A DNA stretch of 27,900 nucleotides from a virus (lineage: Duplodnaviria > Caudoviricetes). Each line of letters begins with the position of its first letter. Position 1 is the first letter of the stretch. Made by a program: the position numbers and the translations under genes. Of the stretch, positions 3,091 through 3,231 are shown piece after piece. The stretch spans positions 1 to 27,900 of the IMG/VR virus record IMGVR_UViG_3300030202_000575. One strand, written 5' to 3'. The notes beneath the pieces are model-generated. The model did not search any database. It was not told where the DNA came from and worked only from the letters and a program-made list of their open reading frames with translations.

Positions 3091-3231
3091 ATAGACCGCT
3101 AAACTGTTACGTTTTTTTTATGTGCCTAGGTAGCTCAGTTGGTAGAGCAGAGGACTGAAAATCCATAATATTGCATCCTTTAGGGGATGTAACCTAGGAA
3201 AACCTAAGTAAACGTACAGTTTAGCGACTAT
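3091..3231. repeat. Imperfect inverted repeat bracketing the tRNA fragment
   Basis: CGCTAAACTGTTACGTTT (3097-3114) pairs with AAACGTACAGTTTAGCG (3210-3226), 17 bp with one bulge. Extended by ATAG (3091-3094) / CTAT (3228-3231). Confidence 0.85.
3124..3164 (+). other. tRNA-Phe(GAA) 5' fragment (tRNA positions 1-41); probable attP common core
   Basis: GCCTAGG TA GCTC AGTTGGTA GAGC A GAGGA CTGAAAA TCC gives a canonical acceptor 5' strand, D-arm and anticodon loop (GAA at 3157-3159). No GGTTCGA T-arm or correctly placed CCA follows. It lies 40 nt downstream of the integrase. Confidence 0.85.

Follow-up and report, generated by a model that had tools for sequence, protein, structure and literature searches.

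The spacer between the integrase and RNA polymerase (RNAP) genes of one temperate T7-like phage bears on how such phages, which infect abundant marine bacteria, enter and maintain lysogeny. In this spacer, half a tRNA is completed by non-tRNA sequence into a cloverleaf shape, and the whole is enclosed by a long outer stem. We asked which part of this structure is conserved among related phages, and whether the conserved part is better explained as an RNA hairpin or as a DNA element.

The window, the whole stretch of DNA analysed here (27,900 bases; GC 40.6%), is a contig of a T7-like phage. It carries a MarR-int-attP-RNAP module together with T7-like replication genes, as do HTVC019P-type temperate Autographiviridae, and its sequence identifies it as a temperate HTVC019P-like T7-type phage of the marine kind. 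The MarR-like winged-helix regulator (1796-2116, plus strand; PHROG 9665, E 3e-27; weak Pfam MarR_2 match) is 45-51% identical to MarR proteins annotated in pelagiphages and to relatives of these proteins. It is followed on the same strand by a tyrosine integrase of Xer-like architecture (2130-3083), whose AlphaFold model was too poor for use (pLDDT 36), and by a T7-type RNAP (3276-5738). Among named RNAPs, the closest come from HTVC019P-type pelagiphages, with identity of no more than 57%, the value reached by HTVC120P and HTVC134P. Directly after a palindrome at 5742-5755 lies the motif CCCTATTAGA (5766-5775, plus strand), a putative phage-RNAP promoter since the same motif precedes RNAP and SSB in HTVC120P and HTVC134P. 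A scan of the plus strand of the int-RNAP spacer found no intrinsic terminator, sigma-70 promoter or phage promoter.

Two further features of the window were observed outside the module. Open reading frames of 598 and 315 aa in 11863-14612 resemble class Ia ribonucleotide reductase subunits when their translations are read by eye. The open reading frame at 6370-6783, likely a T7 gp3-type endonuclease judging by its position, contains a long rod-like hairpin (6633-6733) that overlaps the ATCC-N6-GGAT copy at 6626; the region around it (6601-6880) folds with a z of -6.65, and the hairpin is possibly an RNase III-type site within coding sequence.

The tRNA sequence in the spacer is the 5' half of tRNA-Phe(GAA) (3124-3164, plus strand). 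The same 41 nt occur exactly in eight genomes of unrelated taxa, none labelled Pelagibacter; seven of the eight loci were called as whole tRNA-Phe genes and one was cut by a contig end. A tRNA end fragment beside a tyrosine integrase, with identity running through the anticodon loop, is the pattern of a tRNA-targeting attP of the 5'-fragment type. On this pattern we identify the spacer as the attP of the phage, with 3124-3164 as the inferred identity block and the anticodon loop (3155-3161) as the likely crossover point. According to the available text of Zhao et al. (10.1101/410191), integration into host tRNA genes was demonstrated for pelagiphages, with tRNA-Cys, Leu and Arg as targets; attP lies in the int-RNAP spacer, and the 5' tRNA part of several phages completes the host gene. 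Islander counts 5' tRNA fragments in 159 of 3919 islands (PMC4383910, available part). Given the identity block and the known 5'-half attP sites of pelagiphages, the tRNA half has an ordinary reason at the DNA level. One contig in run X3 spans the attP form, and a 41,960-base contig in run X12 closes on the core. Among the matches listed from eight runs, in which contigs break at or span the core, there was no attL or attR junction and no prophage of this phage. Once the phage has integrated, transcription of the host tRNA-Phe would come in from the phage side; a scan found no promoter directly ahead of the tRNA half (3124), so this tRNA may then depend on the marR-int operon.

Folding of the spacer bore out the original prediction of a tRNA-like cloverleaf inside an outer stem. 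This structure is the minimum free energy fold of 3085-3240 (-52.1 kcal/mol, z -5.99, equalled by 0 of 200 shuffles), and the positions assigned to the tRNA half (3124-3164), the T-arm hairpin (3171-3192), the two CCTAGG strands (3125-3130 and 3193-3198) and the arms all agreed with the sequence. The 17-bp outer inverted repeat (3097-3114 with 3210-3226) is present with one bulged T at 3108, and in the fold the outer stem extends over 3091-3114 (3091-3094 and 3097-3114) on its 5' side and 3210-3231 (3210-3226 and 3228-3231) on its 3' side, plus strand. The T-arm position is taken by the hairpin TTGCATCC-TTTAGG-GGATGTAA (plus strand), which stands on the palindrome ATCC-TTTAGG-GGAT (3175-3188); the CCTAGG that follows is the complement of the acceptor strand. 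The acceptor-like helix had a pair probability of 1.0 and the D arm 0.97-0.98; seven of the eight hairpin pairs reached 0.88-1.0 (the outermost 0.12) and 16 of the 17 outer pairs 0.89-1.0 (the other 0.51), and these values were the same in 300- and 500-nt contexts. The acceptor complement exceeded expectation from shuffled phage sequence (P=0.0125), and 1 of 137 other 210-nt segments of the window held a long-range helix of equal length.

The element is also, as had been predicted, no functional tRNA. ARAGORN called none, and a TTCRA-loop T arm, a 7-bp acceptor stem and a discriminator/CCA are all missing. The anticodon stem keeps three pairs because identity to the tRNA stops at 3164; G1 is unpaired, and nt 1 stands opposite nt 76, not 72. 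Rfam matched its tRNA model to 3124-3210 (30.6 bits) with the T-arm left out of the alignment, and matched no other family. The ARAGORN and Rfam results together rule out a functional tRNA gene at 3124-3210.

To place the fold among relatives, 99 RNAP-upstream regions were reduced to 79 distinct ones and sorted by reading into 28 att-bearing, 36 att-less, 12 distant and 3 unsorted. A core-spanning inverted repeat (P<=0.01) was found in 24 of the 27 att-bearing spacers tested (L001, the window's own spacer, left out), in 0 of 36 att-less regions and in 0 of 11 distant ones (Leu-type core; one more was too short), clades not being independent in these counts. LUZ100 was missed by this test (P 0.11); its longer spacer folds with a z of -7.1. 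All 15 spacers examined by folding gave z values of -2.1 to -7.1. The outer stem covaried in an 8-sequence Phe/Leu alignment, as the prediction would have it: 7 of 20 outer pairs showed two-sided change and 93% of cells paired, a level reached by 0 of 500 shuffles, with 23-54% of cells pairing in slid controls. This result is inflated, because the structure tested came from RNAalifold on that very alignment, in which row L138 is misaligned in helix 2. Among the four closest relatives there were zero two-sided changes in 75 pairs.

The outer stem was kept where the tRNA fragment lies antisense (Cys and Thr groups) and where it is reduced to the anticodon arm. In the Cys-group phages HTVC022P, 121P, 021P and 201P (L098, L101-L103), the tRNA-Cys 5' half runs antisense to int-RNAP and a core-adjacent TTGCA/ATGC site is mirrored to the left side. 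Arm sequences differ across lineages, for example between HTVC105P and HTVC022P despite 88% identical integrases. Arm-type integrase sites were considered as the source of the repeat and are disfavoured by this divergence and by the integrase itself: a domain search of 2130-3083 detected no arm-binding domain, and the sequence begins with a SAM-like domain.

The stem is dispensable for RNAP expression, since the attP spacer is missing ahead of RNAP in 36 relatives. Of these att-less relatives (L018, L019 and 34 further loci), the 23 with enough upstream DNA and an integrase-like gene show no MarR gene but keep the integrase-like gene directly ahead of RNAP; it may have another role in such lytic derivatives. 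In the window, the C-terminal tail of the integrase (3034-3083) overlies two operator-like palindromes; the integrases of L018 and L019, 74-75% identical to that of the window, are without this tail.

The palindrome at the centre of the T-arm hairpin proved to be one of a series. ATCC-N6-GGAT occurs in five exact copies in the window (0.18 expected; 0 of 100 shuffles reached five), starting at 3034, 3175, 3230, 5742 and 6626, with one-mismatch copies at 3068, 3255 and 1479. Those near the spacer lie at the end of int (3034-3047, with the one-mismatch copy at 3068-3081), upstream of the RNAP ribosome-binding site (3230-3243, with that at 3255-3268) and just past RNAP, where the copy precedes CCCTATTAGA. 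The one at 1479-1492 covers the -35 of a predicted sigma-70 promoter (1488-1515, plus strand) of the MarR-like gene itself, and is exact in L015 and L016. Immediately before this promoter there is a 17-pair hairpin with a T run (1425-1463), a candidate terminator or processing site, which is kept in the att-less L018.

In loci that include sequence after RNAP, the relaxed form ATSC-N6-GSAT was exact at that place in 12 of 20 att-bearing against 0 of 32 att-less loci (15 against 2 with one mismatch allowed), and where enough upstream DNA was present a MarR gene was found in 21 of 25 att-bearing against 0 of 23 att-less loci; as the loci are related, these counts overstate independence. L018 and L019 (RNAP 95-96% identical) are without MarR, attP, spacer operators and stem, all together. 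Since these are lost as one block while the integrase stays, an integrase alone is no marker of a temperate phage here. The palindromes thus recur at the regulator's own and at target promoters and co-occur with the regulator, a pattern from which we strongly infer that they are operators of the MarR-like protein. The available text of the LUZ100 paper (PMC10134795) reports the proposal of MarR binding on either side of the RNAP promoter, and Boeckman et al. 2022, cited there for MarR sites, may already define the operator.

These observations change the reading of the T-arm hairpin. It had been taken as part of a tRNA mimic, and it stands on an operator-like palindrome of which the genome has further copies, an outcome that the original prediction had itself named as evidence against a mimic. 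The hairpin is probably in the main a candidate MarR operator, its tRNA-like look coming from a repressor-binding palindrome, and a degenerate operator occupies the same position in the other lineages that carry a sense 5' half. Its flanks lengthen the palindrome to eight pairs, and the pair 3173/3190 is G-U here, G-C in L014-L016 and A-U in one contig if the partner is unchanged; these leave some room for an RNA role. A search with the hairpin pattern for further members of the lineage gave ten viral matches, of which only one, the relative already known, lies beside int/RNAP.

We propose a mechanism in which the att-spanning repeat acts as RNA. The anatomy of the site is seen directly in the window and integration itself is known from the pelagiphage relatives; by analogy, crossover in the anticodon loop would restore the host tRNA-Phe behind int and leave RNAP behind the displaced host 5' half. 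The T-arm hairpin, which adjoins the core on its non-tRNA side, would serve as one MarR operator. Before integration, the marR-int-att-RNAP transcript would fold into an att-centred stem of more than 20 pairs, whose structure is conserved and whose RNA nature we infer. Cleavage of this stem, on our hypothesis by RNase III, would separate the int mRNA from the RNAP mRNA and destabilise the former, exposing its 3' end and sparing the RNAP mRNA; integration would part the arms and end the effect. Once integrated, RNAP would face the host tRNA promoter and would likely be repressed by MarR at 3175, 3230 and 5742. The stem resembles a sib-like retroregulator in being a long helix downstream of int, confined to the attP state and conserved in structure. 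The chances seem evenly balanced that the repeat is an RNA hairpin formed only before integration, and that its cleavage by RNase III keeps integrase expression down. The DNA layers of the scheme are well supported, and the odds of the RNA cleavage step are about even.

The main rival places the function in DNA. The repeat would be a symmetric attP nucleoprotein layout, each arm carrying half-sites for MarR as well as host architectural sites, or else a quasi-palindrome homogenised by template switching, which can correct quasi-palindromes; in either case the RNA fold would be incidental. Near strand symmetry is what this account expects, and our tests of strand asymmetry barely favoured RNA over DNA. 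The sense fold was more stable than the antisense fold in 13 of 24 spacers, with 80 G-U pairs in sense and 74 in antisense and a sense-strand excess over composition of -1.6 kcal (p 0.02). Internal G-U mismatches outnumbered A-C mismatches by 16 to 5 cells, but by 10 to 5 distinct contexts (p 0.3), and by 38 to 24 in looser alignments (p 0.1). A DNA layout would also account for the operator half-site CTATCC, carried on the 3' arm in most lineages, and for the TTGCA/ATSC site beside the core, which in the Cys group changes sides when the core is reversed. However, the arms differ by bulges and multi-base indels, the conserved ATCC core contains none of the covarying columns, near-identical integrases are paired with differing arm sequences, and the repeat spans several helices and exceeds an arm-type site in length. 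The bulges, asymmetric loops and sequence turnover favour RNA, as does a G-U pair of the Cys-group helix that is invariant in 5 of 5 sequences. RNA runs X18-X20 were covered in small shares, as assembled contigs. On this evidence a DNA-only origin of the repeat, in either form, is doubtful. A masking role, in which the repeat hides the tRNA half of the phage early mRNA from host tRNA-processing or modifying enzymes and regulatory cleavage plays no part, is very unlikely. It would account for the right arm of lineage 2, whose pairing takes in the acceptor strand, D loop and anticodon flank, and for the complement in L138, which has moved to tRNA nt 4-10; but phages whose antisense or anticodon-arm-only fragments offer little to mask (HTVC019P, L178, L183, L188) retain the stem, and the window's own D and anticodon arms remain folded.

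The remaining rival is a functional tRNA mimic, whose cloverleaf would be a substrate of RNase P or of other tRNA-processing nucleases in both attP and attL, so that at attL the cut would sever host tRNA-promoter transcripts from the RNAP gene. The cloverleaf is predicted at a probability of about 1 in the window; it requires tRNA nt 1-41 and the right arm, not the left arm, and it is stable without the outer stem (z -2.9). The changes at 3173/3190 fit a paired RNA, and bacterial RNase P cuts hairpins that have no T loop, such as P4 CI and P1 C4 RNA (PMC5499578, available text). Sense 5' halves occur in further phages with Phe (L004, L029, L039, L056, L138), Leu (L126, HTVC109P, HTVC105P) and Arg (HTVC120P, HTVC134P) sequences, and in 13 of 13 such spacers nt 1 finds its partner at nt 69-76, in a search restricted to 66-80. 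In L015 and L016 the complement covers tRNA nt 2-11 (10 nt), including CCTAGG. Acceptor pairing recurs somewhat, but just 3 of the 13 spacers exceeded shuffles at P<0.05, and the covariation that the mimic called for was marginal, with 19-47 of 500 shuffles attaining its level. When the fold began at nt 1, L004, L039 and L056, which carry the same tRNA-Phe half, formed rods with the D arm opened, and HTVC120P had no acceptor helix, so no acceptor/T-arm mimic is kept across homologs. The element has neither T loop nor CCA, its leader is partly paired, and its hairpin core is a repeated DNA palindrome. In a modelled attL, built on one arbitrary bacterial tRNA-Phe locus and indicative at most, the acceptor helix had a probability of 0.09. 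Where stem-bearing phages carry an antisense tRNA fragment, a sense cloverleaf is impossible. We regard a functional mimic as unlikely. From the rods, the weak acceptor pairing and the marginal covariation, the modelled cloverleaf appears to be specific to this lineage, a local variant of the inner part of the hairpin, and by sequence comparison the conserved unit is the outer stem, not the cloverleaf. The predicted tie between fold and unintegrated state therefore splits. It stands for the outer stem, which spans the crossover, can form only in attP, covaries and is lost with attP; it falls for the inner cloverleaf, which does not depend on the left arm, is thus not attP-specific and could also form at attL.

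The att-spanning hairpin, read as RNA, allows a broader proposal, which we put forward tentatively and at less than even odds. HTVC019P-like marine phages may carry a recombination-split RNA switch, in which host RNase III would read the hairpin as 'not integrated', set the integrase:RNAP ratio and so feed the lysis-lysogeny decision; in the present lineage, the core would also be a tRNA-shaped nuclease substrate over an operator. Taken alone, the last part, a tRNA-shaped nuclease substrate overlapping the repressor's operator, is improbable. The candidate MarR operator ATSC-N6-GSAT and the hairpin split by integration are two elements that can be tested in cultured pairs (HTVC022P/HTCC1062, LUZ100).

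T7 early mRNA carries RNase III sites, and these are likewise long irregular stems ahead of the RNAP gene. RNase III action on T7 RNA is described in PMC5371410 (available part). In contrast to the T7 sites, the stem type of the window tracks attP and is missing from the 36 att-less relatives. For the cloverleaf, the nearest parallels are RNase P substrates that include P4 CI, P1/P7 C4 RNA and plant t-elements (PMC5499578, available text), likewise RNase P-cut RNAs of lysogeny regions or tRNA-like elements of mRNAs. The window's cloverleaf differs from these in that it is not conserved, that Rfam matches it to nothing but tRNA, and that one of its halves is a genuine piece of a tRNA gene, retained for its part in recombination.

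The attP of HTVC019P-type pelagiphages shows the same MarR-int-attP-RNAP order, with the core in a tRNA gene and a phage 5' part that completes the host tRNA (10.1101/410191, available text); the target there is tRNA-Cys, Leu or Arg, whereas here it is tRNA-Phe. The words stem, hairpin, inverted, repressor and promoter are absent from the main text of that paper, and the available part of the LUZ100 paper (PMC10134795) does not mention RNase III, operator or palindrome. No description of an att-spanning stem was found in the literature searched, supplements aside, which included the pelagiphage, LUZ100, cyanophage (PMC8776855) and pelagiphage transcriptome (PMC12753301) papers. The attP type and MarR control are thus already known or proposed, and the att-spanning stem appears undescribed in the literature searched.

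In lambda, an RNA structure downstream of int (sib/tI) retroregulates int and depends on attP state. The window shares with sib a structure after int whose presence follows attP state. In LUZ100, marR and int are cotranscribed; the mapped terminator T4 stops most of these transcripts, while others continue into RNAP (PMC10134795, available text). Its sequence contains ATSC-N6-GSAT sites and a long enclosing stem. By our own fold T4 falls between the arms of this stem, which would therefore form only on readthrough, as in lambda, so that the T4/stem layout matches that of tI/sib. The LUZ100 spacer holds an intrinsic terminator and a phage promoter, whereas the scan found neither in the window's spacer. 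Lambda sib lies entirely beyond the crossover; in the window the crossover falls within the hairpin and the downstream gene is a T7-type RNAP, so that recombination would split the helix itself.
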